NCBI GenBank assembly: GCA_008632985.1
Contig: QPGO01000032.1
Span: 307,330 to 371,329 of the forward strand
Direction of reading: 5' to 3'
Length of the DNA: 64,000 bases
Source: Psammoneis japonica
Lineage: Eukaryota
The translations under genes and the position numbers were made by a program. Positions 2,176 through 43,629 of the stretch are shown piece by piece. Positions within the stretch are counted from its first letter, which is position 1, and each line of letters starts with the position of its first letter. The notes under the pieces were generated by a model. That model was not told the origin of the DNA. It did not search any database and was given only the letters and a program-made list of their open reading frames with translations.

Positions 2176-2367
2176 TAAAGAGTGCCGAGATGGAGAGGGA
2201 AATCTTCCCTGAGTTGCGAAACTTTTTGGATTGAATCGGAATTGAATGCGTGGAATGAACGCATGGCCGGAACGGCGAAGTTGCGCGTTTCCGGGTTTCT
2301 TTTGTGGCTGCACCCACATTCAAGCTTGCGAGCTTGCGGCGGCGTTGAGCGCAGACAAGAGTTGACC

Positions 2368-4687
2368 ATGAGCACCGAGATCTCCTCGTCGTTGTCACGG
2401 CTCCCCTCCCAAAAGCAGAGCACTGCTAATGGAGATAGCGACGAAAGGGTTCAAGAAGAGGAGCGTCTGTCATCGGACTTGGCCTTGTTCCTTTCGAATC
2501 CGTCGCTGAAGGCAGCCTTAGCGGATGGGTCTCTGGACTTGGCGTCTTACTCGTCGACGGTGGAGGAAGAATTGCAAGAGCTGGAAACCAAATGCATTGA
2601 TGCATACCGGTCGAAATCAAAGGAGATTTCAGTGCTAAGGAATGACTTGGAATCGTGTGACGCAGTCTTGGGAGCGCTGCAGGAAATGCTTCTGGGGTTT
2701 CAGGCTGATCTAGGCGGCCTTAGCGGTGATATCCGGAGCTTGCAAGACAAGAGCAAAACACTGGGCGTGCAGTTGAGAAACCGACGTAAGGCTGAAGCGG
2801 GTCTACGGGGGTTCCTAGAAAAGGTAGTGGTGGCGCCCAACTTGACAAACACTGTCTGTCGAGGTCCAGTCAATGGATTGTTTCTAGAAAGCGTGCAAGA
2901 GTTAAATTCGATTCATCATTCTGTACATTCGAAAGAACCGCAAGAGTGGTCGGCAAACCAGCCTCCATCAGAAACTGTTGCGGGCCAAGAAATGAAGCTC
3001 CATGTGCACAAGCTGCGCCTTGTTGCTGTATCGAGAACACGGGACTACTTCCTTTCGCAAATGGCACTCTTGAGAAGGCCGAAAACGAACGTGCGTATGA
3101 TTCAGGTTCACGGTCTCCTCAAATACTCGGATCTGCAAGACTTTCTGCAGGAAGCATGTCCTGAAATTGCTACTGAGATTTACAACGTCTATGTCGAATC
3201 CATGGGCAAGGTGAGTCGCGTTTGATTTGTAAATGTCCATCTTTTCCTGATTCCTTCTCAACACTTCGTTTCATTGTATTGTCTCCCTCGCGCAGACACT
3301 CTATGCTCTGTTCCGTACATACCAAGCTCAGTTGCATCAATTGGATTCTACCAAAGTTTCTGCCACTCGTCATGATGTCATTGCTATTGATGACGCGGCG
3401 CTTCGAGATGCCTTGACCACAAAGGCCAAAAAACGAGTGGATAGTTTCTGTTTGGGAAACCGTATTGACAATGTCTTGGACACGACGGAACCCATTTTGG
3501 CGCATGTTGCGCTAGCCGAGGGCAAGAGGTATCCTTACGAGATGCTCTTTTGTTCCTTGATGATACACCTTATGGACGCCGTCACCAACGAACACGTATT
3601 CTGTCGTCAGTTCTTCAAGCGCGATGCATTTGGACCACTGTTTCATCATACCTTGGGCCTCTTGTTGGAACAGTTGGAGAATTATCTCTTTTCCTGTCAT
3701 GATGGCTTGGCTCTCTTGCTCATGATCAAGACTACCCACGCGCATGGGCGATTAATGAAAAACCGCAAAGTGCATTCGATGGACGGCTTCTTCCAGAACG
3801 TGACGCAGTTGCTCTGGCCTCGTCTCAAGACCGTCATGGATGCTCATCTTCGAAGCATCAAGAGCGCCACGGCACAGAAATTGGGTGGCGTTGATATGCA
3901 TGCGCACTATGTATCGAGACGTTATGCAGAGTTTACCTGCTCCATTCTGTTGATTCTGCACAAGGGCAACACCACGTCGAACCAACCCAAGTCACCGCTA
4001 AAGAGAGCCGTCTCTAGTGACAGCAACAAGAGCGCGCCGTCGGTAAAGCCTTCTTCAGAATCGTTGAGTGGCTCTATGCACCGCGGAAGTGCTGGGGATA
4101 TGCTGTTGCAGGACCTCCAGGCCATTGCGGACGAGACGGTGTTATTGTTAGAACGTTTGGCCGATGAACACGCGTCTAACAAGAAGCGAATCGTATTTAT
4201 GATTAACAACTTGGATCAGATCATTTGCATCTTTCAAGAACGACGCGTCGTTGGGAAGGAACTGAACAAGTTTGTAGAGCTCCTCATGACGCAACGAGAA
4301 ATGTTTGTGGAAGAGGAACTGCTTCAGACCTTTTCCAAAATGATTGCCTTTGTGCAGCAAACCGAAGGTCATATTTCATCCAGCGCAAAAATGACAAGTA
4401 ACCAAGTGGTGAACGCACAAGTGGTGGAGAGTTTGGTTCGAGAGTTTGCCGTCAATTGGAAGCAGGGAATTGAACAAATCAACCGCAACGTTCTGAGTTA
4501 CTTCTCCAACTTTCGAAACGGAATGGAGATTTTGAAGCAAGTCTTAACGCAGCTCTTGCTCTATTACACACGATTCCAAGATATCATCAGAAAGGTGTGG
4601 AGATCAAAGCCCCCCGCGTTCTGCAAGGATCTTGTCAATACGAGTGTCATTCTTGCTGAAATCAAAAAGTACGCTTTGGCTATCTGA
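2368..4687 (+). CDS. VPS52: GARP complex subunit Vps52; exons 2368-3210 and 3296-4687
   Basis: CDAVLGALQEMLLGFQADLGGLSGDIRSLQ...LRNRR, LLWPR, FSNFRNGMEILKQVLTQLLLYYTRF. GTGAGT...CGCAG intron 3211-3295 joins the two ORFs in frame. Confidence 0.95.
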
Positions 4688-7400: not shown

Positions 7401-8130
7401 TTGTACAATCGCTCAAGGTTTCCAATCGGGCGTTTTTTGCGAATCTATGAAGGGACGAAGTCTGGAAGGAGGGTGCATCGGAAGTGACTTGAGCATTGGG
7501 GCCTATTGCATTAGCATGCCTCTATAAGCCGCCGGCACTGTGGTACGACAGGTGGCACACCCCTCTCATGCTATCTTCTTTCCATCGTCGAGCTCGACAC
7601 GTTTGGCAGCAGAGGCGGCATTGGCTCTTACCGGAAGCCGCATCCATGGTAATCTCCTGCGCTCAAGTAAAGACGATACTAGCTAGGCAACTTCGGCATA
7701 TGCATTGCAACTCTACAAGTACTGTGTGTGGAGCTTGATCCTTTTCGCCGCTTTCTTCTTCTTCTTGGTCTGCTCTTGCCCCTCGGGAAAGACCCGTGGG
7801 GTCGCTCATCGTTTTTGTGTATTCTCTGTTCCAAATGGTAGATATGTTCGCTAATAGATGTTACTATTTCTATTGGTTGGACCAGGCTTGACATCAACCA
7901 GGCCGTTGGAAGATTCCTGCATGGTTCACGTCAACGACGGGACCAGATCGCCTGTGGTCGTGCGTAATTCGAGCTCCATCGTACTTCATCGATCGTACAA
8001 ATTTCTACGATGGTACCTTCGCGGGACTGATCGGCAGACTCAAACTCAGGCATGATCGGAACTCCTCACCTTTTCTCACAAAACGCAACAAATATCCACC
8101 GTAGTTCCTTCACTTTCAAATTGCTTCGCA

Positions 8131-8670
8131 ATGATTTTTCCACCCATTTGGAGCTCTACTAAAGGTAGCGGATGTGATGACCGTTTCCCTTCATACAAGA
8201 TTGGCGCATGCCTCATTACGCAGGACTCTCGTGGCTTGCAGCTGTTGTTCCATATTGCTGGTGTCAAGACAGAAGACTTGTCCGTTGAAATTGTCGACGG
8301 AATTTTGACAGTATCAGGCCACGTTATGGATAATGGAAGGATTGTTTCGGAATTCGAAAGAACTTTAAATGTCGACATTGAAACGTTTGATGCCGCGTTT
8401 GCCAGCGCGAATGTTGTGAGCGAACAAGGTGTGCTTGTTGTTAGATTCCCAACACATAAGCACACGGAACGAAAAAGCCAACGAGACAGAAAAATAAACT
8501 TTTGGTATAGACGCTCAGAACCACCCCCGCAGCCGCCTCTGCAAGAATTCGAAAAAGTCGAAGTGACTCTACTTCAACCAAAAATTGTCGACGAGCAGAG
8601 GCGACCGGTCGAAGACAATGATCGGGTCCTCGGAAATCGCAGTCGCATCGGCATGATTGTATCATTTTAA
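8131..8670 (+). CDS. Small heat-shock protein (HSP20 family)
   Basis: IAGVKTEDLSVEIVDGILTVSG...FERTLNV...GVLVVRFP. Confidence 0.8.
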   Translation: MIFPPIWSSTKGSGCDDRFPSYKIGACLITQDSRGLQLLFHIAGVKTEDLSVEIVDGILTVSGHVMDNGRIVSEFERTLNVDIETFDAAFASANVVSEQGVLVVRFPTHKHTERKSQRDRKINFWYRRSEPPPQPPLQEFEKVEVTLLQPKIVDEQRRPVEDNDRVLGNRSRIGMIVSF

Positions 8671-8752: not shown

Positions 8753-10696
8753 CTACACGTCCGCCCAAACAAATGCCTGAAAGACTCGCGGATCAAAGTC
8801 CGCCATACATTCATCCCACGCATTTTGGTCGATATATGCAAAGTTTGATTCACTTAAATGCGAGCAAGCATACCATTTCAACATGGCCTTGAGAGATTTG
8901 ATGCTGCTGCAACGTGTTCGAGTCGCCATTCTTGTATTTGTTGACACGTCCACCAAGTTGGGCATGGAATCGATCAAATCATAACAGAACGAACCGGAAT
9001 TCGTTGGTACCTTTACAATGCTGACAACGTGCTCACGAAAAAACAATGCAGCTCCCGCCTTTCTATCCGCGTGGCTCTTTGTTTCACCCTTGGACAGCGT
9101 TTTGAGGAATTCATCCAAATGAGCGTCATCCAGCATATTCCCACCCGTGGCACCGACAAACTTTTCCTGCGACAAGAGCTTATGATCCACCATGTAATCG
9201 TGAACGTCCGATGGGATAATCAATGCATCACCCTCCAGCTGAAGTTTGGAACGGATTGCTTTCAGAATGGGCCCACACTGTGTGTCAATGACATAGCGAA
9301 CAGCTTCGTCCGACACGGATTGGCGGCTCGTTAAATGATGAGAAACCACCAAGGGGGAAATGACGGCACATCCGTTTGTCGAATGTCGATATCGCCCTTG
9401 GAAGGTATCCAACCCCATAACGGCAATCTTGCGCAACGAGAGCATATAAAAAACAAATCGGGTCAGCACATTATACAACGACTTCAGCTTTACAAACACT
9501 CAAAACGCCGTACCTTGTTTTGCTGCTTCAAGAGTCTGTACTCTTGTGTATACTGTTGTTTTAGTTTTCGAATTGGCACTCGCTTTTCAGGCTCAACTCT
9601 TCTCTTCGCCAATTCTTCGTCCTCTTGGCGGATTGCTCGACCCGCAGGAGCCGCCAGAGGAAACCCTGAAACCTGACTGCCTGGAACAGCCTGGTCATAA
9701 CTGGGTGGAGGAGGCGGTTGTGGCTGATCCGACATGATTTTGCTGTAGCTAGGCGGAGGTGGAAACAACTCATCCGCCGTGGGAACGTGAAAGCTCAAGG
9801 ACGAGCCGGGCTGTGGCGGAGGTATGGGCGGGGGCGGAACGGGAGGAGGCAAGTCCTGATCGCCCTCGTTGTCCAATAGCAAAGACATGGAATCAGAGCG
9901 CATCGATGCCGTGAGATCGCTAACTTGACTGGACTCTTCGTTATCAGATAACCCGAGGGAATGCGTACTTTCCCCGTTGGTTTGCTCAGAGTCCATTTTC
10001 TTTTCGGATGGGAACTTTGTCCTGAGTTGTTGTAATTTGCTCAACGCCGAGGCCGCCACATCTCCTCCTTCCCCTTTTGCTTTTAGCCGTTCCTTTTTTC
10101 GTTGTTGGATCTTTTGTTGCAACTCCATCATTTTCCTCCTCTCAGCTTCTCTTTGTTTTTGGATCTGAGCCTGATGCCGCCGCATCTGTTCCTGATGCAG
10201 CTTCAGCTGTTCCTGGTACTTTCGTTGTCGTTCGGTTTCTTCTGCATCCATCCATACAGCGACTTGTTCCAGTTTTTGAATCACATTTCGCATGTCTGCA
10301 TCGTTCTTTTTCCTCCTTTTCGCATGCGCTGGAGAACGATAGTAATTATGGGTTGGGATTGCCTCCAACGAAAAAGCTGCAAAGCGCTTCCCATAGATAT
10401 AAGCGTCGTCCAAGCGACGTTGGGAATATGCATCTTCAAAGGATTCCAGAACCTAATCAATATCATTTCAAGTGTTGAGACAAGTCTTTTATCAATCACA
10501 GCAGTCACTTTTACATGAAAAATACCGTTCGTGCATTGCACAATCTCACCTTGTCTGCCGCGTTGTAGTAGCGATCAATATGGAAAAACTGGCTCACGAG
10601 AGGAACGCCCTTTCCACTTCCCATTTCTGCATCCGCATTCTTCAACGCCTCACGGCGTGCATCGCTGGGTCGTATTCGACTTACGCTGCTCGTCAT
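8753..10696 (-). CDS. USP8/AMSH-type N-terminal domain, coiled coil, Pro-rich PPSY region and candidate cysteine-protease domain; exons 10696-10550, 10452-9514, 9427-8753
   Basis: Introns 10453-10549 and 9428-9513 give an in-frame splice. IDRYYNAADKVLESFEDAYSQRRLDDAYIYGKRFAAFSLEAIPTHNYY resembles USP8_dimer; C-terminal NGCAVIS / FREHVVSI / LIDSMP. Confidence 0.75.
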
Positions 10697-11019
10697 GGTT
10701 GCTTCTCTTTTGTTTTGGAGTCCCGCTGTCGGCGTTGGAGTTGTTTGCTTTTTCGCTCGCGTCTTCTTCGAAAGAGCATCAACGCGCGCGAATATGAATA
10801 TTCTATCACCCGCGATGATGCCAACGTAATCGTGACATCATGTGTCCGTATGTCGCCCGGTTGGCACGAGTTTTTGGATTTCGAAATTTTGACAACGTTC
10901 GTCACTCTGCATGCGGCGGACTCACATCATTTTCGTTATTGTCATGCGGTGATCACCGCAATCGGCTCTCTGTCCTTGAAACTTCATTTCCACCTCTGCT
11001 GAACAAGGCGGTGCTCGTC

Positions 11020-12279
11020 ATGCATGGGCGATTTGTAATTTGCTTGCTTATTGTCTGCTGTAGTGTTGAAAGGTCGTCTGCGAAAAGCCTCATTGTTTCT
11101 AACTCACAAAGGCAGCATTGGAAGGTTGCTACGTTGCCATCATCAATCATGGCATCGAAACGAACAAAAACAACAGACAATAACAATAACGATGTATCGG
11201 TAGTACGAGGCGGAGGATCCGGGGATCAGCACGAGCTACTCAAAGGACGACTACTGGTATTTTCAGTGTCTGCCTTGTATGGAACGCTGAGTGTAGCAAT
11301 GCGTCTCGTTTATAGCCGACCCGATGCACCGACACCCGCGGCTTTAAGTTTTTGTCGATCATGGATCACAGCAATATCCTTTTTGTTGTTTTCAAAACAA
11401 AAGCAAGAAAAAGAGCCATCAACACAAGCAACGCCACCACCATCATCAAGACCTCTGTGGACGGTTGGCATGGAGCTTGCATTTTGGACCGTGACGGCCT
11501 TTGCGCTGCTTTCTGTAGGACTGAAAAAAACCGAATCCGCCATTCGTGCCTCCTTCTTTACGCAAACCTCCGTAATAATCACGCCGCTCTTGTCTATACT
11601 GGTGGATGGTCAATCCATTGAATCCTCTGTTTGGGTCGGTTGCATCATGGCGCTGCCGGATTGCTCATTTTGACCATGAGTCCAAGTAGTTTGGAACAAG
11701 ATGCGTCCTCGCTGTTTAAGCTGAGTGTCGGAGATATCATGGTATTGGCAAGTGCCGGTTGCTGGTCGGCTTATATTTTACGAGCAGCGACTGTAGCTCG
11801 ACCCTATCCGCGGTACAGCTTCAATCTGCATATCCAAATTTCGTGCCGCAGCAAACACAATTTGGCTCCTGGCGACAGGCGGTTTGGCGGCGTCATCTGC
11901 TACCAAAGATGCAGCTGTCGGCGACTCGAGTTTGCTCTCTGGACTATTGGGCATCGTGGATAGTCAGTGGGCAGGCTGGAGACACGATTTCGTCTCGTGG
12001 TGTCTCGTGGCGTACGCCGCCACTGGACCAGGAGCCTTGGCGGCGGTACTGCTCCAACGGGGATCACGACACGTATCAGCGTCTGAAGTCAATGTCATCT
12101 TGTGCTGCGAACCAATCTTTACAACGTTTTGGTCCTTTTTGATTTTGGGGGAAACCACATCGTTGCGAGAAGCCTTTGGTGGCATGTTGATTATAATGGC
12201 TGCAATTACCGCTTCGGGGACACTGGACGGATTCCTTGGTAGGCTGACAGGTTCGACAAAAAAGGAAAAGGGAGACTAA
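11020..12279 (+). CDS. EamA/DMT-family transporter with N-terminal targeting peptide; frameshifted
   Basis: SALYGT, RASFFTQTSVIITP, GDIMVLASAGCWSAY, EPIFTTFWSFLILGE; multiple TM segments across three frames. Confidence 0.85.
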
Positions 12280-12935
12280 TCTCCATGAACAATTGCTATC
12301 GCTACAGTGGTCTGCTATGGTTCCTCCTTTCGCGTTGCAAATACTTCTAGGTAGAGAGTGGACGAGGAGCAAGAATGAAAAAGATTCGTGGGACTTCCTG
12401 TTATCTTGTAGAAGTAGCAACCTCACTTTTGAAGTCGTTGATGCCATTGCGCGCACTCTAGAATAATGATAAATGTGTTTGAGAGAGCTATGAAACAAAT
12501 GAAGGGCACTGATCACCTGCTGTACAGCACTGTTGTCGCGAGCAGATAGTGCTCAACGATGAATTTGTCCGAGGATGCCATGGCAACAGAGTTGCCTCTT
12601 TGTGTTACATAGTTAAAAATAGAGTAAAGGGTTATCCTGAGATCTACTACAGTACTCTCATGTAAGGTAAGGGATAGCTAGAAGAGGTAGAGAGTTGCAA
12701 ACTGATGAAACCCGAGCGTGGAAGTTTTGTGACCGTTGAAGACCGTTATTAGGCGTTATTCAACGGCAAACTGATCATTAAATTTTATTTGTACTTTACA
12801 ATGAATATTTAAAAAATTGAAAAATTCAATCTACGTGAGTAAGAGTAGAGTGCGGTAAAACGTAAACAACACAACAACACACACAACCAACACACCTGCA
12901 ATAAGGCAGAACGCAGATCATCAGAACCGAACGCA

Positions 12936-14343
12936 ATGGCGACCGCCCCCGAAGTCACCACCGTACCCGCAGATGTTGCCGAAATGACCCTCAAGGATCA
13001 ACCCGAGACGATAGAGAAGGGTCTCGAAACACAAGTCAGCGACGCAGCTTCTGCTGCTTCATCGCCTCCCTCGTCGGAGAATACCGGTCCCAACTTTGGA
13101 AAAATTTCGTGGGACATTTGCGATCGTCTCCGCTGCGAATCGTGTGGTCACGCGGTATCGGCTCCCATCAAGCAATGCCGTTCCGGTCACGTGTTGTGCC
13201 TACTATGCTCCAACAAGGTTACCACCTGCCCCAACAAGGCGTGTGAAATTTCGCTCAAGGGAGACTTGTCCGTCAATACCAGTCTCGAGAAAATTGCAAA
13301 CGATGCCGGTGTCGTTTTGCCGTGTCGTTCCATACATTGTGATTGGCGTGTCCCGCTCAGGGATTTGGCGCGTCATGAAAAGTATTGCATGCTGATTCGC
13401 AAGGGTATTTTGAGTGCCAGTATTTATCCCGAAAAGGAAACAGAAGAATCGAAATTGGACCCCGATTTGATTGCCAAAGAGTCGATTCGTCAGGAATTAA
13501 ATTGCTCTCTTTGCAATCACGCCGCACCGGCACCCATTATGCAGTGTCGAAACGGACACGTACGTGCTATTATTGCCTGGGTAGGCTGGAAAAATTTGAA
13601 GACTCGTCGTGTCCGCTGTGCGAAGGACGGGATGATGCCGTGGTCCGCAATTTGCATCTCGAGGGCATGGCAAACGTGGCAGAAGTATGCGTGCCGTGTC
13701 GCAACAAGGGTTGTGACGTGACTGAAATTGCTCATAAGGACCTCAAGATCATTTGGAGGTTTGTGAACATCAACCCATCAAGTGTATTCATTGCAACATG
13801 AAAAACAGCGACCAAGTGGAAGTATCTTTTGAGAATTGGGATGCCATGTGGGAACACTACAAAGAGGAGCATTTACAGTCCTTTCCCGCCGTGTCGCTGG
13901 ATAAGTTGGTTGTGACATCAAGCAAAATTAAGTCGGTCATGAGCACCGAAAAGGGTCTAGGTTTCTTTTCGTGGAATCACTGCCTGGATCCAGCCACGGG
14001 ACAGGCCGTTCCCATATTCCCCGGGTTGCTGTATCACAAGCCACAGGATGCCTTTTACTTTTCGGTTCGCATCATGGGACCACTGGATTCCAACCAGTTT
14101 TACCAGTTGCGTGTCAAGCCCCATGATTCTGCTGAAGCCCCGCTCGCCGTGGAGGCTTGTCTGCCGCCCACGTCGTACCGCGTGGGATATTTGGACGAGG
14201 CTAGTTTGGCAACGGCGGCCAAATTGCTTCAAGCTGGACCTTGTCTGGTCCTTTCGAGACCCACTCTGGAACACATGTTGTCTGTGTCGTCAGACGGTGG
14301 TCTACTGTTTTCCGTTTGCCCAGTAAAAAGCGAAAGTGCATGA
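12936..14343 (+). CDS. SINA/SIAH-like E3 ubiquitin ligase with duplicated RING plus Zn-finger module; frameshifts near 13560 and 13750
   Basis: CESC...PIKQCRSGHVLCLLC...CP and CSLC...PIMQCRNGH...CPLC...RNLHLE, each followed by PC...C...H...C. Confidence 0.8.
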
Positions 14344-14800
14344 ATTACATAGTGCATTGTAGTAATTAGAGGCCGTGCTGTTTTCGGATAGAGTGGATAA
14401 ATAATACAGACAGCAGCGGTTTCTCTACTGAAGTTTACTACAGCTAGAGAGAAAACTGAATATCATGTTTAATAGTCTTGGTACTTGTCTCGTCTAGCGG
14501 AGGCCTCCCGTAAAAAGAAGGAAGGTTTGCGCCACAGAAATTTCTTACCTTACTTCTTTGCTGATTGTAATCTTGTGCCAAATCTACCTCCACGGAGCTG
14601 TTTGTAGAAAGAAAGGAACTAATCCCTATAGCTCATTCGGAGAGCTTCACACCGAGATCCTCTTGCCATAGCTGATGCTCAACAGAGACATACCATAGAG
14701 TGTTTAGCTAGAAATGAGCTAGAATCTACAGAGATACTGTCTAGACAGAAATGAACTTGAATCTACGTATGGCGCGGCCAACCTGTCGGGAAAAACAAAC

Positions 14801-16137
14801 TCAATCATGTTCATCTTCTGATGCATAATCGTTGTCACTCGCATTTCATATGTTTCACTTTGTTCACTCTCGTCGTCGTCATCATTTTCTTCTGATGCAC
14901 AATCGTTGTCACTCGCATTGACATAGGTCTCACTATGTTCACTCTCGTCGTCGTCATCATCTTCTGATTCAAAATCGTTGTCACTCGCATTGTCATCGGT
15001 CTCACTTTTTTCACTCTTGTCATCATCCATGCTCAACAAATCAGTCTCCATCTCTGACTCTGATGGCCACTCATACTGGTCCTCGGCCTCGGCGATAGCT
15101 TGATCCATTGTTTGAAAGTCATTCGTCAACCAGAAAGTTCCGTACACTCGGTTGGGAGCTTTACTTCCGACAAGAGAGAGTGCGGCATTTTCAATTTGCC
15201 CGGGAACCACAGTATGCACATACGCCAATCTACCATCAGGACAACACTCGCACGTGGTGACAGTGGGGTGTGGCGGTACCGTTCGTATGGTCTGATTGAA
15301 AGCCAGTCGACGACGCTTGAATTGACCATTTACGTACCTGGGTTTGTCATGAAGCAATTCAAGGCACGCCGGGCGAATCAGCTGCATAATAAGTTGAACT
15401 ACGAAAGCCCATGCCCAGTCGTACACTTCGTTATCCATTCGTGCCACACTTGCGCGATGGGACAGCCGACGAATGATGCGTTCACGGAGGAGGTCATCAT
15501 TGTCACCTAGTAACTCCGACGCGTGTTCTAAAGTCAATATTGGGTACGAACCATTATACCTCAACCCATTTGGTTCGGCAACAAACTCTCGCTCAAACAA
15601 GTCGTGGTGACAAAAATACCGTTTCGTCAATACTGGATACAAACCAGTGGCCTCCGCAAGTTCAACCGGAATCTCGTATGTCTTTTGAAAAGCAAGAACC
15701 ATATGTGCCTGTACAAGCGCTGCCAATACGTAGAGTGTGTCACCTCGAAACAGGAATCGGTGGTGGTTAAGTTCAACAGGGTGCTGTTGAAGATTGAGCA
15801 AACTAGGGCCTCGGTCGGAAAGAATCGAGTGGACCAGATCATTCCACCCAACCGCGCCAAGCTCGTCGACGAGTATGTTGAGTCCGCGTTTCTTCTCCCT
15901 GCGAATCGCTTTGATCGCCGTTCTCGCACAAGCACGATCGCGGTTGGACTGCAACCTGACATCCTCTCCAAGAATCTCCTTATTGTCAAGATGCTTCCAT
16001 GTCATGTCGTCGCCGACGATTTGACGAAGTGTTCTGCACGTCCGCTCACACCGAAGTAACGTCTTGGTGTCGCGGGCTGCAAGGATCAGTATCTTCCGGA
16101 TAAGTTCTACCGGGAGCGCTTCAAAGAGGCTTGACAT
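14801..16137 (-). CDS. F-box protein with H3-like and H4-like histone-fold segments and an acidic repeat tail
   Basis: F-box LFEALPVELIRKIL...RTCRTLRQIV...W; histone-like blocks described in findings. Stop is probably 14801 once one A is restored in the third tail repeat; the ORF track reads on to 14719. Confidence 0.75.
14803..15020 (-). repeat. Three coding tandem copies of ~72 bp (acidic SETxxNASDND repeat)
   Basis: aatcgttgtcactcgcatt recurs at ~14828, ~14901 and ~14973. Confidence 0.9.
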
Positions 16138-16500
16138 GATCAAAAGTCTTGTCCAGTCCTAGAGACGTGTCTTCTTTACGAAATATAGTATGGTGGCGAC
16201 AGCAACGTTGACTGTTGTCGTCCCGGCTATCGCTGTCATTGCCGGGCATGAGAATGAAGACGAAACATCAAAAATCGCGCGGGCGGCGCGGGAAATTTTG
16301 TGGGTGGAAGCAGGTCCGCCTACCTTTGAAAATTTGCGTTTTTGCCTGTCCTTCGCTCACGGCGACAAAAGGCGAGCTGGCATTTTCTACGTAGATCCTA
16401 CGTAAAGTAATACCACAAATCGGCACGCGAAAATCCATGCAAGCCATTTCGATCGCGGCACTCCGACAAACACGGATATATCCAACAAAGCAGAGAGACC

Positions 16501-18159
16501 ATGGCGGAAGAAGAGCAGGCAGCACCCAAGGCACCGGTACGTGGTATGACATTGTATTTTGAGTGACATGGAGAAATAGAGTTGAAACGCTGGGCAACAG
16601 ATGTGGTTGTACCAACATGCCCATGGGCGAATGTGATAGTCATACCACGACACGTAGACTCCGGTACAAATTCTACGCGACAACCCGGACATATCTGCCC
16701 TTCATGACTGAAAAATGAGAAAGATACCGACCATGGGATTTTGAACGATCTTTCTGTTACTCATGACTTACAGTATGTATGTTTCCCCCATACTGCAGAC
16801 CTTTGATTGGCTCCCAGAGGGATGGAAGCGTTGGCGACGGCGAATACGACGCGATTGTCATGGGAACGGGTCTCAAGGAATGTGTGATCTCTGGTCTACT
16901 TAGTGTTCAGGGAAAGAAAATCCTCCAGGTGGACCGTAACTCGTACTATGGCGGTGATGGAGCCTCGCTTAACCTTACCAATCTCTTTGAAAAGTTTAAC
17001 GCGGGTCAGGTTCCCTCCAATCTGGGCCAGAACCGCGATTACAATGTGGATCTTATCCCCAAGTTTATCATGGCTTGCGGCAACCTCACCAAAATGTTGC
17101 TTCACACCAAGGTGACTCGTTACTTGGAGTTCAAGTCGGTTGCCGGGTCCTACGTGTACAACGACGAAAAGATTCTCAAGGTTCCTGCGACACCCGAGGA
17201 AGCCCTTCGGTCGCCACTCATGGGACTTTTCGAAAAGCGCCGTTTCCGTAAGTTTCTGCTCTACATTGACCAGTACGAGGAGAACAAACCCGAGACGCAC
17301 GAGGGGCGTGACTTGACTAGAATGACCATGCGTGAGCTCTACACCGAGTTTGGTCTTGTGGATGCGACTCACCAATTCATTTCCCACGCCATGTGCCTCG
17401 AGTTGGACGAAACCCACATGGACAAACCCGCTCTCCCCACGGTGAAGAATCTTCAGACGTATTGCTACTCGCTCTCGAGGTACGGTACCTCGCCGTACAT
17501 TTACCCGGTGTACGGTTTGGGTGGACTGCCCGAGGGCTTTTCTCGCATTTGCGCGATTCACGGTGGTACCTTTATGCTCAACCAGGACGTGGACGAGATC
17601 CTGTTTAACGAGTCGGGTGCTGCCTATGGCATCAAGGCTGGCAACCAAATGGCCAAGGCCAACATGGTGATTGGTGATCCCTCCTACTTCCCCAAGGAGA
17701 AGGTCCGCCCCACTGGACTTGTGGTGAGGTGCATTTGCATCCTCAACCACCCCATTCCAAACACCAACAACAGCGAGAGTGTCCAAATCGTCATTCCCGG
17801 TCCTCAGGTGGGACGTGTCAATGATGTCTTTGTTGCTGCATGGGCCACACGCTCCAAGTGTCGGCTCCCGGCATTTACATTGCCATTGTTTCGACTCGTG
17901 TCGAAAGGAACAGCCCGACCAGGACGTGGCGCCTGGTCTCAAGCTGTTGGGACCCATTTTGCAGCGCTTTACCAGTGTCCAAACCACGTACGAGCCAGTC
18001 GAGGACGGTGGCAAGGACAAGTGCTACATTTCCAAGTCGTTTGACGCGACCTCGCACTTTGAGGCGGACTGTGACGACTTTTTGTCCCTGTACAAGCGGG
18101 TTACCGGAACGGACCTTGACATGAGCATTAGTGCCGATTCGGTCGAGGGAGACTACTAG
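16501..18159 (+). CDS. GDI: Rab GDP-dissociation inhibitor; exon 1 16501-16536, intron 16537-16798; apparent small deletions near 16830, 17832 and 17905
   Basis: EYDAIVMGTGLKEC, DRNSYYGG, RDYNVDLIPKF, SPYIYPVYGLGGLPEGFSR, GGTFMLN, SFDATSHFE. Confidence 0.97.
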
Positions 18160-36793: not shown

Positions 36794-37093
36794 CGTTGGT
36801 GTTGAACTACAGTATTGGGCTAACCTCATTTTTTTGCTCCTCTCGGGTTCTCGTCCGTCCATCAACCGTTTTCGCGCACTTTTTAGGGCAAGCTGATTGA
36901 TGATTGGTTGGAATACGTCATCATGACGTTGCTCGAAATGCCCGCCAGTTTCGCCAATTTTCGCCAAGAGCCAAGAGTTACGTTGCTCATGGTATTTTGC
37001 TTCCGCAGCCGCCTGTCGTCTTCTCCTCCAGCCCTATTCACAGTTGATTCACGCGTCATTGTCTCCTAACGCCTTGTATTCTATCTTAGAACG

Positions 37094-40000
37094 ATGGGAC
37101 GAACCAAGAATGCCAATCCCAAACGATCTCTTCATGTGACAGTGACGGAACGACGGAATCACGAGGATCATGAAACAACTGCAGCCACGATTGCTCAAGC
37201 GGAGTCCTTGGAACCACGAAGAAAGAAGCAAGTCACGTTTGCACGAGAGCTTGAGTCAACTATTGACATACCATTGATAGAGAATACAGAAGCAACTATC
37301 GTTGAAGAGGATCCGACAGTGCAGCCAGAAGTTACAGTTCATTCCCATTCCCATTCAGAGTGGACCTTGGAAATCCAGTCTGACGAATCGGCGCGAGAAG
37401 AATCAAACCGTGCTTCACCATTTTTGTTGAGGCAATATGATCTGAGCAACACGTCAGTCAGCTTGGGAAGCGAGGAAAACGGCGTTAACTTGTTTGCGAT
37501 AAGAACGGCGGAGGGTGCAGCAACCCTGGTGAAGCATTGTGAAGGTCGATTTGGCAATAAAGAGAAAGACTGGCGTTCTGTGGGAGTTGCTGTCGAGGAT
37601 GGGACAATGTCATTGATTTGCACATTTACGAATACAGTTTTGCAAGTGTCGCTATGGTTGAATCAATTGGCGTTTGAAGTGTCCTGTCCGTCCAATCTCC
37701 CAATTACAACGAGACGAAACCAATGGTCCAAGAAACAGATTCCCTGCCGAAACTTGCGGTTGGCTCTTGGCAGTCTCTTTCCACAGTCTGTGATTGCCGA
37801 TGTAGCCAAACCCCAGTCATCATCTTCTTCTGAAAGTATTACAGCCAAAATGATTTACGACGTGACGGATAATGTGCAACTCTTGGCACAAGACGAGAAC
37901 CGAAAACCGTTCCGTGACATTCCCGGCCTTGTGCCCACCTTGCGTCCTTATCAAGAAGAGGCGGTCGAATGGATGTTGAAGCGGGAAAAGCAGCAGTTGT
38001 ACACGGCAAGAGGGAGTCCAATACCCATCAAGAGTGATGAGAAGGAAGGACGAGAATGGGAAATGGCTTGGGTTGTCTTGGTCCAAGAGACGTCAGAAAC
38101 GAATAGTGAAAGCCAGTGTCAAAGACAAGGCAATATCGTAGTGCCATTGTATGAATGGAACAAACAACAAGACTCGGAGTACATCTTTTACAGTCCCTTT
38201 GCGGGGTGGCTTGCAAAAAGTGTGCAAGAGGCCCACGCCTACTCAATTCAATCTGTTTATCCCGATTGGGATCCGTCCAAGCATTCGAATCCCTACGTGT
38301 CCGGAGGTATTCTAGCGGATTCCATGGGACTAGGAAAAACAGTCGAGGTATGTTCACTACGTTTAGTTTCTGTTGTTTCGTGCCGGTACTGATCCATGGT
38401 GCTAACGCTTCCTCGTGTTTTGCGGCTTTGTCCAGGTGTTGGCTTGCATACTCGCAAATCCGTTGAAAACGAACGACAAAGGCAAAAGCTCTGTCGTTCG
38501 CAATTTGGACTTCTCCACAGATTCCGATCAAGAGGAAAAGAAACAAGACGATAATACTTTAGAAATCGTAAAGGGCAACGTGCCGCCGGCAAAGAGGCAG
38601 CGCACTGGGGAGGCGCAATCGGACGAAACGAGCCACGAAGAAAATGACAGTGGTGTAGGAAACTTTGATTATTGTCACGAATGTGAAAAGGTAAAGGGGG
38701 GCTTTTTGTTTTGCGCAGAATGCCCGCGAGCATTTCACCACGGTTGCACGCCCCAGGGCGACGACCCTGTCAACGAGGATTGGGTTTGCCACGTTTGCAA
38801 AGAAGAACAAGCTACTAGTATTCATGTGGATGGAACGGTGTCGGTTGATACTATTGCAGAGGCGTACGACCAGTATGAAGAAGCTGATGACTTTGATGCC
38901 GGTACTAAAATCCTTAGCATCACTCATGAGATTGTCACGACTCTTGAAGATCATGAGTTTGGGACTTGGTTTCGGCGTCCTGTCGACTGCGACGAGGTTC
39001 CGGGCTACGCTGAAGCAATTTCTAACCCAATGGACCTGGGAACAATAGCTTCTGATATAAGCAGCGGAGAATACGGCAATCGTTATAGCTCTTGGAACGA
39101 AATGGTGGTCTCCATTTTGACTGATCTTGAGTTGGTTTGGCATAACTGCTTTGTCTTCTATGACGAAGGATCTTATCGCTGCAAGATGGCAAAAGTGCTA
39201 CGTCAACAAAGCCAGAGAATGCAGAAGGACAGTCTTGTTTCTCTGTTGGCTGAAGATGTTGTTCGTCGAGTCCAGGGCGCCGCGGATGATTTTGAGAAGA
39301 TGCGAATCAGTGGTATCGAAGAACTGTCGACTCTTCAACGGCAAGCAACGGTGAAGAAGAAGGTTTCAGAGAACTACTCTGACTACGCCTCAATTGGAGA
39401 ATGCCTATGCGGCCATTCTGGGAAATCAAAAAAGACACTCTCCATGGTGGTGTGCCGCTCGTGTTTTGGTCCAATGCATGGGGTGTGCGCTGGATTCACG
39501 TCGGAAAAGCAGCTTCGCGAAGAGACGCAAGTGGGTACGATGAAGAATCAATATACTCACGAAGAATTTTATTGCCGAATGTGCAATGAAGATCATTGTC
39601 CTTGTTGCGCTTTTTCGAGAGATGGAGAGAGCTTGATCCAGAGTCGCGCAACACTTATTGTTGCTCCGCCGTCCATTATTAGCCAGTGGGAACGTGAGAT
39701 CAAAAGGCATACCGCAGTTCCGATGATACCAGACGCCTCCGCTGGTGCATCTTTAGCAAGTACTGGGTTGGTGTCCGGGGAGCGTGATTCAGAATCTTTG
39801 CGTCCTCTGAATGTTCTTGTTTATCCGGGTGTTAGAGAGTTGTGTAACAATGCCGGGCATAAGCCGTCCGTGAATTCGTCTGAAGATGACCGCCCCAAAA
39901 TCCATTTGATTCATCCGCGCGTCCTCGCCGATGCAGATATTGTGCTGATGCCATTTCAGGCGTTGATGGGAGACCTGACGCATTCTGCTGACAACCCATT

Positions 40001-43000
40001 TGTTGATTCACCAGGTAACAGGGGTTCTTCACAGTTGAATCTAAGAAAACGAAAAAGATTTCGGGTTGTCCCCTCGCCTCTAACCAGTATCAATTGGTGG
40101 AGAATATGCCTGGATGAGGCACAGCGTGTCGAAACTCCGACTGCGGCATCAGCGCAGATGGCGTTGAAGCTCCAAACAACGCATCGATGGTGTGTTTCAG
40201 GAACACCGGTCGGTAAAGGTAAACTGGAAGACCTGTACGGTCTAGTTCTATTTCTCGGGTTGACGCCTTTTTCTAGCAGCAGTTTCTATTCAAAATGCCT
40301 GCAGTCCTCGCATCAAGGGGTTATGGCAAGGGTGAAGCATCTGTTGCAGACAGTGTTTTGGCGATCTACAAAGTCATGCCCAAGGGTAAAGCTGGAAATG
40401 GGCGTTCCAGAGCAGGTTGAAAAGAAAGTATTCCTTCGGTTCTCGTCAATTGAGAGACATTTTTACGAAAGGCAACTGGAAGAGACCTTGTCTATTGCAA
40501 GCACAGTGGCAGGAATGCGAGAAAGCAATCAGAAAGCTACACAGATAGAATTGCTTGCTGCTCATTTACATCGACTACGTGCCGCATGTTGTCATCCTCA
40601 AGTTGGTTCTAGAGGTGTCGGACGCCAAAAGAAGAGTCGCAAATCTCAATCCGACAGTTGCGACAATGGATATGGGTCGGTGAATATAAATTCTGGGGTG
40701 CTTACAATGGACCAGATTCTTGATCGATTGATTGATGATGCAAAGACAAAATGTGAGGAAGCCCAGAGACTTGCCGTAATGCATAAAAATGCGTTGGCTT
40801 GCCTGTCGAGACTCAAAGTGGATGCGCGAGGCTTCGGCATTTCAGTTGACGAAAGCGACAAAGAGCTTTTGACTCGAAGCTGTGAAGCATATCAGGAATC
40901 TTTGGATCTTATGGACACCAATGCTGAACCTAGCGCTGTCGTAGGTGAATCCATGATCACAGGCTGCACAGGCTTTCGTAGATCTCGAGAAATAGTTCGA
41001 GACGGAAAGGCCATTCTTGATTGGCAGCTGATATCACACGATGCGTGTGGTGAGCAGACCGAGAGCCATGGTGGTCTGAGGGAGGTGTGGGCGCGAATAG
41101 ATTTTGAAGGCCCTTCCAAAAAGCTAGTTCAGATAAGGATACAACCGATCCGGCATTTGCCAGCAGCCCTGTACGAAGAGCGTGGGACGGGCTTTCATGT
41201 TCTTCGACCGAAAGACTGCATATTGCAGGTTTCCAGCGCTTCTGTTGGTGGCATGTTTGTGGATGTTGTGCGTTTCACGTTGCCGGCATCTGAGCAGAAC
41301 GATACTGCTGATACCTGGTTGACTTTCGGGGGATTTCGTACTAATAAGTCTAAAAGTTGGCGCTTGCTGGTGAAGAACTACCACGGAACGGATCTGATGG
41401 AGTTCCCCCCGCAGGCAACTGCTCGCTCGTTGTACGTAGGAGTGGAAGTGGAACTGATGGAGGCCTCTATTGCAATGGACACCCTTCCGCGTCTTCACGT
41501 GCTACATAATTTGTCGTTGTCATTGTCATCTCTGCTGGAGCAAGGAAAGCAAACACCTGAGAGCGCATCTGATGCTGATGGGTCCCTGTCGACAGACGAA
41601 TCAGGAGCTTCTGCTGATGTAAAAACAAAAATGCTACGCATGAAGGCCGAAGCAGAGAAAATTGAGTCGTTGTATATGGATGCAGCCAGAACTGTTCATG
41701 GTGAGAGTCAACGGCAGTTGCAGATTGCGATGGAACAGCGCAGGTCGCTCGAGCGCGACTTGCTTCGTGTTAAACTCCTAGCCCGAAAGTCTGCGAAGAA
41801 TCCCAATGCCACAGATAGTTACTGGGACGATGCCTGGTGGGATGACCTGTTATCCGCATGCCACTTACATGCCTCTATATCAGAGCGACTTGCACTATGC
41901 GATAAGGTTGCAGGTGATCTGAATGACTTTTACGCGGATACTGTAGCTGGAATAGCAAGTAAGAAGCGATTTCCTCAGTTCCATAATGCCGGTGGGCTGA
42001 AGGTCGCCCTTTCCTTATATATTGATGAGGTGGTGACTCAGAAGCATTCCCCGTGTATCGAGTCTGTAACAAAGTTGAGTGCAAATCCAGAGGAAGACGA
42101 AATAGTTGAAAACAGCCACTGCAAAGTGTGTAGAGAAGACTGGTGAGATCCTTGTTCGCGACCCATATCGAAACATGCGAAAGTCGTCTTTTTATTCCTA
42201 TGTCGTTTCTGACACGATACGCTGGATTCTCCTCCTACGTAGGAATCAAAAAGGGCCCAAATGCAGGCATTGCAAGTTGGAGGATGCGCTGGAGCAGTTA
42301 GAGAACGACCCGGTGTTGCTCTGTGTCTTGAATTCACTTTCGAAATGGACAAGGGAATCGAAAACAACAGGTGCTCTGCGATCCGCAATGCTTGCGGCTA
42401 AGGTCGACGAACGAGCCAAACTGTTTTTCAAGGTTGTCAAAGCAGCAGAGAAAGAAAGATTAGCGGCACGAGCTGCATGGAGTTGTCATTTTGATCTACT
42501 CAGCGATGTTGACGAGCTAATCCAGTGCAAGCAAACCATGAGACTTGCCCATGAAGGAGAGGATTTAAGCGACTTGACCGAGGAAGAACAGAATTTCATA
42601 GTGGCGCCTTGTGACATTGCCGCAAAATGCATGGACCATGAAGCGAGGAATGCAATGGCTTTGGGAGATTTGCGAAGGTGCAGAAATACTCTTCGGTACC
42701 TTAAGAATCAGAATGCAGAGCGGCGCGAAGAAAGAAGGGTCCGTAAACAGCACCGAGGTGGACGTTCAGACGCAGCTGAGGATAGGAAAGCAAGCTGTGT
42801 CGTCTGCCTAAACCCACTTGACGGAGATAGGGCCGTTCTTGGTTGTGGGCATTCATTTCACTACTCTCCGTGCTTGGAGAATATAATGAAACGTGGTTTC
42901 AGTCGTCAGACTATAACTTGCCCATTGCGATGTTCATTGAAAACGAAGCGTGAAGATGTGCTAATTGCAACTGACAAGAGAAAAGACGATGGTAGCCGGT

Positions 43001-43629
43001 CCAGACGTGAAGTGAAAGGGAGTTGGGGTACAAAAGTTACTCGCCTTGTAAGCGACGTAATGGATGTATCTGACCGGGGCGAGAAAGGCATTGTTTTCTC
43101 TCAGTGGGAGGATATGCTGGAAGTTGTTGAGCAAGCTCTAGCGCAGAATAACGTCCACTACGTTCGAGCGACGAGTCTCGTCCACATTGGCGAAAGTCTC
43201 AAATCCTTTCGTTCGTCGGCGAACTCGGTTCTTCTTCTTAATGTGAAGAATGCAGGTGAAGGATTGACACTTGTTGAAGCGACTCATGTCTTCATGGTGG
43301 AACCCTTGCTGAACTGTGGTCTCGACAGTCAAGGTGAGTGAATGCTCGGAGTTGTGTCTCTTAGTCTCTTGGACGTCGTCTTACTCTCCTGTGTCCTTTT
43401 TACATTAGCTATCAATCGAATTCACCGAATTGGACAGGCGTGCAAAACGTATGTGCATCGCTACGTAATTGAAGATACAGTCGAAGTGAAGATCGACAAA
43501 ATGCGGTCAGAAAAACAAGACGATCAAATTGAAGATTTGATCAACAATTCTAAAGTAAAACAAGGTGTACGTGGCGGCGGCATTGATGGTGGATTGAGTC
43601 AGGCAGAACTGCACCAGCTATTGCATTAA
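37094..43629 (+). CDS. SHPRH: SHPRH-like SNF2 helicase / RING E3 ligase with PHD, bromodomain and PHD insert; introns 38348-38435, 42143-42242, 43334-43408
   Basis: LRPYQEEAVEWM, GGILADSMGLGKTVE, QWEREI, WWRICLDEAQ, RWCVSGTP, LRAACCHPQ, RING CVVC..CGHSF..C, FSQW, GLTLVEATHV, QAINRIHRIGQ. All three introns are GT-AG and in frame. Confidence 0.92.

Follow-up and report, generated by a model that had tools for sequence, protein, structure and literature searches.

The locus studied here raises the question of which enzyme, if any, stands behind an N-terminal head of the type found in the deubiquitinases AMSH and USP8 when the usual catalytic domain of these proteins is missing. It lies on contig QPGO01000032.1 of the diatom Psammoneis japonica (assembly GCA_008632985.1, positions 307,330 to 371,329 of the forward strand), a stretch of 64,000 nucleotides that we call the window and whose first letter is position 1. 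A first-pass annotation, made from the letters of the window, proposed at 8753-10696 an AMSH/USP8-like architecture in which the catalytic domain had been exchanged for a candidate Cys-His-Asp protease related to the VTD deubiquitinases. These coordinates match exactly a minus-strand diatom gene of three exons (147 + 939 + 672 nucleotides = 586 codons). We lean towards the reading that its product is a modular cysteine protease belonging to the YopT/VTD/DUC cluster with a classical papain-order site, most likely a deubiquitinase or a protease of a ubiquitin-like modifier, recruited to ESCRT-III by its head. This cluster comprises three families whose mutual sequence relationship is described as undetectable (Lachmayer et al., December 2025 preprint, bioRxiv 10.64898/2025.12.04.692294); what we cite from this preprint and from Erven et al. 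2022 (PMC9741609) refers to parts of their text. Of the earlier proposal, the architecture, the guess of the fold and the triad stand, but strict membership of the VTD family does not, since its defining motif fails.

The gene model is as follows, all features being on the minus strand. Exon 1 (10550-10696) has 49 codons from an ATG at 10696, contains the start of the MIT-like domain and terminates in RYYNAADK; homologues are gapless over the junction (ADKVL) made by intron 1 (10453-10549, 97 nucleotides, GT..AG). Exon 2 (9514-10452, 313 codons, translation P0001) encodes the remainder of the MIT-like domain, a long helix and a proline-rich linker. It is separated by intron 2 (9428-9513, 86 nucleotides, GT..AG) from exon 3 (8756-9427, translation P0003), which encodes the 224-residue predicted papain-fold protease domain and is followed by the stop codon at 8753-8755. 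Exon 3 is not in the frame of exon 2, which makes the second splice necessary. We compared the window by tblastn with P0004, a complete transcript-derived homologue from Asterionellopsis glacialis (taxid 33640), and obtained exactly three pieces (query residues 1-50, 48-226 and 448-672), in agreement with the exon model. Residues 1-50 map to 10696-10547, and the pieces join at ADK/VL and QQNK/IAV with a contiguous reading over both junctions. The motifs quoted in the first-pass annotation were all found, namely RYYNAADK continued across intron 1 by VLESFEDAYSQRRLDDAYIYGKRFAAFSLEAIPTHNYY, two PPSY copies and, in exon 3, QGRYRHSTNGC, FFREHVVSI and YDLIDS.

Predicted fold and candidate active site of the C-terminal domain

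The exon-3 domain was modelled from a 38-sequence alignment (A1) with a predicted local distance difference test score (pLDDT) of 94.8 and a predicted template modelling score (pTM) of 0.91. When this model was compared with the PDB by Foldseek, the top matches were 8ADD, 8ADC and 8ADB (E 3e-7 to 4e-6), then 2J7Q (E 1e-5), and the next ranks were held by an MCF-like effector (E 8e-4) and AvrPphB (E 3e-3). The order was unchanged when the Foldseek list was re-ranked with VIA-align and when VIA-align alone was run against 48,161 representative chains. The four leading entries are references for the VTDs (MEROPS C76, PF04843 or Herpes_teg_N): 8ADD is DrT1-VTD2, 8ADC and 8ADB are Wc-VTD1, all three from the work of Erven et al. 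2022 (PMC9741609), and 2J7Q is M48 of murine cytomegalovirus. In BFVD, the top matches were herpesvirus large tegument proteins and a small number of orphan proteins from giant viruses of the Klosneuvirus type. A papain-like fold with the C76/VTD deubiquitinases as best matches, as guessed in the first-pass annotation, was therefore returned for the last-exon model by Foldseek, VIA-align and BFVD; as modelled, the domain is specifically VTD-like and superposable on M48 and DrT1-VTD2. Protein-language-model features gave a lead only, with 17 of the 30 nearest clusters in the PF04843-marked set, PF04843 being carried by just 11-17% of the members of those marked clusters.

We then aligned 426 relatives to a hidden Markov model (HMM) of the family and counted the residues at the candidate active site, the total for each column being the relatives that cover it. 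Gln10 (codon 9398-9400), a candidate oxyanion-hole residue by comparison with papain-fold enzymes, is Gln in 411/411. Cys20 (9368-9370), the candidate nucleophile, opens helix 20-33 according to DSSP and is conserved in 410/411, the remaining relative having Ser. His133 (9029-9031), the candidate general base, opens strand 133-141 (DSSP) and is found in 425/425, and Asp153 (8969-8971), the candidate third residue of the triad, lies in strand 147-160 and is found in 424/425, with one Asn. The Cys, His and Asp of the earlier proposal are these residues, and of 410 relatives in which the four columns are covered, 408 keep all four residues. In the model, with Cys20 opening the first helix, His133 opening a strand and Asp153 on the strand next to it, these residues take up the papain arrangement, in which Gln10 would serve as the oxyanion residue. 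The order Cys-His-Asp that had been proposed is thus present, but it is that of papain, YopT and DUC.

The Foldseek list also contained, at low rank, Cif deamidases and other papain-fold proteins that are not proteases, and the domain could in principle be a non-protease enzyme (deamidase, transglutaminase, acyltransferase) or a catalytically dead scaffold. With E ~8e-3 to 3e-2 and a template modelling score (TM) <0.3, the matches in question are weak, and a dead scaffold is at odds with the conservation of Gln, Cys, His and Asp reported above; we find this explanation hardly credible.

The comparison with VTDs turns on the position of the histidine. The oxyanion-position Gln of M48 is reportedly Gln10 and, in linear spacing, Gln10, Cys23, His141 and Asp156-x-His158 of M48 stand against Gln10, Cys20, His133 and Asp153-x-Met155 of the diatom domain. 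For M48, Cys23, the auxiliary His141 and Asp156-x-His158 are as given by Erven et al. (PMC9741609), and the VTD family is defined there, and also in the preprint (bioRxiv 10.64898/2025.12.04.692294), by an invariant Asp-x-His motif. In VTDs this motif lies on one strand, whereas the diatom domain has its His on the strand preceding Asp, and Asp-x-His was found in 0/426 relatives, neither at 153-155 nor at 131-133. Most relatives have Leu (318) or Met (103) at residue 155, which is Met in the window protein. Linear spacing and strand pairing suggest that His133 occupies the classical site, at a position equivalent to the auxiliary His141 of M48, and that the hydrophobic residue 155 sits where VTDs place their catalytic His. 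In the model, residue 155 would face His133 across the sheet, the hairpin turn being formed by residues 142-146.

Because Asp-x-His is absent, the domain falls outside the strict VTD class, to which the first-pass annotation had brought it close, and is better described as a VTD-like fold with the classical Cys-His-Asp order. That it is nevertheless a true VTD, a herpes-tegument-like deubiquitinase of MEROPS C76, appears very improbable to us, given the lack of the motif, a His on the strand before Asp rather than on the same strand, the lack of a PF04843 match and the lack of a transposon context. PF04843 gave no match for exon 3 at E<=1, nor did it occur among the matches listed for the 38 A1 members at E<=10; divergent accepted VTDs are described as likewise escaping simple profiles (PMC9741609). 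In comparison with VTDs, the diatom gene is also a host gene with an MIT-like head, located neither in a transposon nor in a virus, and its product has no detectable sequence similarity to them.

A further feature of the domain is the motif PSDVHD (residues 72-77, 9197-9214), in which Asp74 is conserved in 424/426 relatives and position 77 has Asp in 375 of them and Glu in 45. Counted from the candidate nucleophile, Asp74 is Cys+54 and Asp/Glu77 is Cys+57. Acidic residues that bind the ubiquitin tail, holding its C-terminal arginines, are reported at Cys+54/+55 in DrT1-VTD2 (PMC9741609) and at Cys+55/+57 in AtDUC1 (bioRxiv 10.64898/2025.12.04.692294). From this match of positions, Asp74 and Asp77 may have the same tail-binding role.

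Two side observations were made during these searches. Orphan proteins of Catovirus, Indivirus, Yasminevirus and Tupanvirus (231-384 residues) have the same fold in BFVD (E 2e-5 to 5e-4, TM ~0.54), and these giant-virus proteins look like unannotated VTD-like or DUC-like domains. Among the language-model neighbours of P0003, two clusters of diatom UBA-domain proteins (~314-341 residues, score 0.85-0.86) might hold a related protease domain fused to UBA.

The N-terminal head, the long helix and the linker

The head, an AMSH/USP8-type MIT-like (USP8_dimer) domain, extends over 10228-10678, with approximate borders and across intron 1, and was recognised by a profile match to the AMSH MIT domain and by PF08969 in homologues. 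We observed that the profile of alignment A3, made of 18 sequences with exon 2 of the window as its first row, matches the AMSH MIT domain (2XZE, 9LE4) at E 1.2e-4 over profile positions 10-155. Among six full-length homologues scanned with Pfam, PF08969 was above its cut-off of 24.6 bits in four (P0005, P0025, P0034 and P0100; 25.1-37.5 bits), just under it in P0004 (21.6 bits) and without a match in P0095. PF08969 (USP8_dimer) is also the sole Pfam family listed in the precomputed annotation of the matches of the P0003 search. These results agree with the AMSH/USP8-like head of the first-pass annotation. The model of exon 2 has a mean pLDDT of 72.4, with short helices first and then helix 41-125; its Foldseek list was led by the N-terminal domain of USP8 (2A9U, E 0.34), with MIT domains of Vps4 and AMSH nearby (E 0.3-2), all of them non-significant.

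The AMSH/USP8-type head recruits AMSH and USP8 to ESCRT-III; 2XZE is the AMSH-CHMP3 complex. To our knowledge, this type of head is otherwise known from two endosomal deubiquitinases. The diatom protein resembles AMSH/STAMBP and USP8 (PF08969; 2XZE, 9LE4, 2A9U) in that the same type of ESCRT-III-binding head is joined to a protease, but differs from them in that its catalytic domain is neither JAMM nor USP. In the diatom protein the head would bring the protease to ESCRT-III on endosomes.

Downstream of the head, the first-pass annotation had placed a coiled coil. What the model shows is one continuous predicted helix over exon-2 residues 41-125 (10078-10332; DSSP on the model, block pLDDT >90 to residue 120), which is a candidate coiled coil or dimerisation helix and may pair two copies of the protein. 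The part of the claim that stands is the helix, its coiled-coil nature being a candidate property. Another helix was modelled at exon-2 residues 294-310, directly ahead of the protease domain. We also noted a short helix, ASALSKLQQL, at exon-2 residues 132-145 (window ~10018-10059), within an otherwise disordered region; its SALxKLQxL form is conserved in A3 and could be a binding motif.

The linker itself (9574-10017, exon-2 residues ~146-293) is proline-rich and predicted to be disordered, the model giving it a pLDDT of ~45-60 and no secondary structure. It contains both PPSY copies seen in the first-pass annotation. The first (9745-9756, residues 233-236) is the copy conserved throughout clade 1 of the family, defined below, with P233 and Y236 invariant in A3, and the second is at 9697-9708 (residues 249-252). 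By their predicted disorder and their conservation, they have the characters expected of PPxY motifs, i.e. WW-domain ligands, and may tie the protease to a ligase with WW domains of the NEDD4/Rsp5 type. We know of no PPxY motifs and no disordered proline-rich linker in AMSH or USP8.

Taken together, catalysis, ubiquitin as substrate, binding to ESCRT-III, binding to WW domains, dimerisation and endosomal localisation are all properties that we infer for this protein.

A diatom family and its relation to DUC and YopT

Exon 3 matches 377 clusters at 50% identity with E<=1e-3, and 200 of them with E<=1e-30. A word-indexed search with the same query gave 367 longer proteins; with 64% identity for the best of them, the window's own protein is absent from that collection. 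All the matches that carry an organism name, which are a minority, are diatoms: Seminavis robusta, Nitzschia sp. Nitz4, N. inconspicua, Fistulifera solaris, Cylindrotheca closterium, C. fusiformis, Mayamaea pseudoterrestris, Amphora coffeaeformis, Pseudo-nitzschia arenysensis, Skeletonema dohrnii, Asterionellopsis glacialis, Gedaniella sp. and Bacillariaceae genome bins. A domain-alignment scan of viral contigs yielded 118 pattern-matching stretches and that of prokaryote genome contigs 58, none of which was confirmed as a relative.

A tree of 16 named catalytic domains has two clades, which are paralogues, since each contains Seminavis and the two Cylindrotheca species. The window gene belongs to clade 1, with Gedaniella and Asterionellopsis. 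We considered as long members the proteins with more than 250 residues ahead of the protease domain. With an HMM made from the family, the head was found in 189/193 long members of clade 1 and 129/138 of clade 2. PPxY is present in 188/193 long clade-1 members versus 20/138 of clade 2, and is therefore a hallmark of clade 1.

Members of clade 2 (P0264, P0204, P0259 and others) retain the MIT-like head together with Gln, Cys, His and Asp, mostly lack PPxY and have large insertions behind the DSLP strand of the protease domain. Two metagenomic proteins, P0261 (1606 residues) and P0263 (1972 residues), have the protease domain in their N-terminal part (at 6-241 and 369-607, respectively), no MIT-like head and a remainder without a Pfam family, which reflects a different architecture or possibly a fusion of gene models. 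With E<=1e-3 as the threshold, Pfam found no family in 23 long or divergent relatives.

In public records these proteins are called "USP8 dimerisation domain-containing protein" or "hypothetical protein", names that recognise the head at most and miss the catalytic domain. Literature searches pairing diatoms with VTD/deubiquitinase, MIT domain, AMSH or ESCRT returned no account of the family and only unrelated papers. The catalytic domain is thus undescribed in the literature searched, the family being known so far, in public names, by its head only.

The closest counterpart is DUC, a family of plant deubiquitinases that came out of structure-based screening and includes AtDUC1-3, AtDUC1 being PDB 9T71 (bioRxiv 10.64898/2025.12.04.692294). 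As described in the text of the preprint, DUC combines a classical Cys318-His441-Asp456 site, in which a Phe behind the His acts as gatekeeper, with a C2 domain at the N-terminus and a flexible linker, and its K63-specific activity stabilises endocytic cargo. The family is called plant-specific, with single copies in "selected algae", some of them without C2 (same source). By this description the diatom protein resembles DUC in many respects: a VTD-like fold with the profile of structural neighbours reported for AtDUC1, an identical Cys-His-Asp order, the same layout of targeting domain, flexible linker and C-terminal protease, a proposed role in the sorting of endocytic cargo, and the character of a lineage-restricted family invisible to sequence searches.

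One may therefore ask whether the gene is simply a divergent DUC, with an MIT-like head in place of C2, rather than a member of a separate family. The likenesses just listed favour this, as do the acidic residues at Cys+54/+57, close to Cys+55/+57 of AtDUC1, and the algal DUCs that lack C2. However, the C2 family was not found by Pfam in the exons or in the full-length homologues scanned, and the gatekeeper Phe is replaced by Val or Ile in 425/425 covered relatives. The domain has 224 residues against the ~270-300 of DUC according to the preprint, and its His-to-Asp spacing is 20 instead of 15. No plant cluster was present among the matches listed of the 30 nearest language-model clusters. In the text of the preprint, figures and supplements aside, diatoms and stramenopiles have 0 mentions (bioRxiv 10.64898/2025.12.04.692294). 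The entry 9T71 was not among our PDB fold or sequence matches, the libraries of which may not contain it. We consider membership of DUC unlikely. We read the diatom family as a variant inside the YopT/VTD/DUC cluster, set apart from DUC, as the preprint describes it, by its MIT-like head, its Val/Ile at the gatekeeper position, the dimensions of its domain and its occurrence in diatoms rather than plants.

The gatekeeper is likewise missing from YopT and from VTDs, and according to Erven et al. VTD and ZUFSP deubiquitinases also lack an aromatic one (PMC9741609). With YopT and AvrPphB (MEROPS C58, PF03543; 1UKF), the diatom domain shares a classical Cys-His-Asp triad without gatekeeper. These proteins are injected bacterial effectors which cut host proteins other than ubiquitin, and both sources state that AvrPphB and YopT do not cleave ubiquitin (PMC9741609; bioRxiv 10.64898/2025.12.04.692294). 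The diatom protein could then be a YopT/AvrPphB-like protease which the MIT-like head brings to a substrate such as a lipidated GTPase, an ESCRT-III subunit or an Atg8-type protein. This seems improbable: the fold is clearly nearer to VTDs, the match to AvrPphB being clearly weaker, and PF03543 gave no match for exon 3 at E<=1 and is absent among the matches listed for A1 members at E<=10. In addition, the head is of a kind otherwise associated with two deubiquitinases. The example of DUC, as described in the preprint, shows moreover that a classical triad on a VTD-like fold can be that of a deubiquitinase.

Several results weigh against our preferred reading of a cluster protease that removes ubiquitin or a ubiquitin-like modifier. 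AvrPphB and YopT, two proteases that leave ubiquitin uncut, have this triad as well, and residue 134, directly after His133, is never aromatic, being Val (422) or Ile (3) in the 425 covered relatives. We have no sequence link to any protease family: exon 3 matches no Pfam family at E<=1, the 38 A1 members at E<=10 have no protease family among the matches listed (25 families), and a chance match (E 1.2) was all that exon 3 and the A1 profile found among PDB sequences. Scanned one by one, the exons had no relevant Pfam match, exon 2 on its own having none, with the domain split by intron 1, and Foldseek returned nothing at E<=1e-3 with the exon-2 model, which is without the exon-1 part of the domain. 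Finally, conservation reaches 95% or more at 42 of 223 positions in what is a fairly tight family, so that the conservation of the four active-site residues is supportive and not decisive.

In favour of ubiquitin, all characterised VTDs and DUCs cleave it according to the two sources (PMC9741609; bioRxiv 10.64898/2025.12.04.692294). This activity, the acidic positions Cys+54/+57 and the type of head suggest ubiquitin as the favoured substrate, and the diatom family is probably a diatom-specific ubiquitin-removing enzyme.

Genomic setting and what the family would mean

The protease gene and those that surround it are all ordinary diatom nuclear genes. We considered a transposon setting, Helitron or other, and rejected it, as no transposon genes were seen around the gene and its neighbours are of this ordinary kind. 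The absence of a Helitron context around the gene matters because most non-viral VTDs reside in Helitrons (PMC9741609).

On the 3' side, an Hsp20/alpha-crystallin gene (8056-8667, plus strand) converges on the protease gene and has an open frame that ends at 8670, ~80 bp from the protease stop codon at 8753. On the 5' side, a gene for an EamA-type transporter (10819-12276, plus strand; two open frames, probably spliced) is divergent from the protease gene and may share its promoter region. A methyltransferase gene is also among the neighbours. Two adjacent open frames at 2179-4684 (plus strand) contain Vps52_CC and Vps52_C and look like one spliced Vps52 gene; Vps52 belongs to the GARP complex of endosome-to-Golgi traffic, and its nearness to the protease gene (~4 kb) is probably coincidental. 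Beyond the transporter, a run of genes related to ubiquitin or traffic (12849-18041) is composed of a SINA-type RING protein (12849-13718, plus strand), an F-box protein (14722-16158, minus strand) and a Rab GDI (16767-18041, plus strand). Further on, a large SHPRH-like gene (37070-43338, plus strand) has PHD, bromodomain, SNF2, RING and helicase C domains over three open frames. No ubiquitin gene was found in the window.

We may go one step further and propose, tentatively and as a conjecture that could well be wrong, that diatoms own a fourth, hitherto undescribed family within the YopT/VTD/DUC cluster. This would be a deubiquitinase with an ancestral papain-order triad on a VTD-shaped fold, a living intermediate between YopT-like proteases and the VTDs with their flipped site; its ESCRT-III head would have been acquired independently, in convergence with AMSH and USP8, and PPxY would pair it with a NEDD4-type ligase. 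The origin of the Asp-x-His site of VTDs is left open in both papers, as far as their cited parts go (PMC9741609; bioRxiv 10.64898/2025.12.04.692294), and an unflipped active site on a VTD fold would bear on how this site arose from a YopT-like ancestor.

Deubiquitinase classes that are restricted to one lineage and unseen by sequence searches are a recent finding, with VTD in 2022 and DUC in 2025, and the diatom family would add another. Its architecture would follow the logic of AMSH and USP8 with a different protease module, and the cell biology of diatoms would gain with it a concrete handle on ubiquitin-dependent endosomal sorting.

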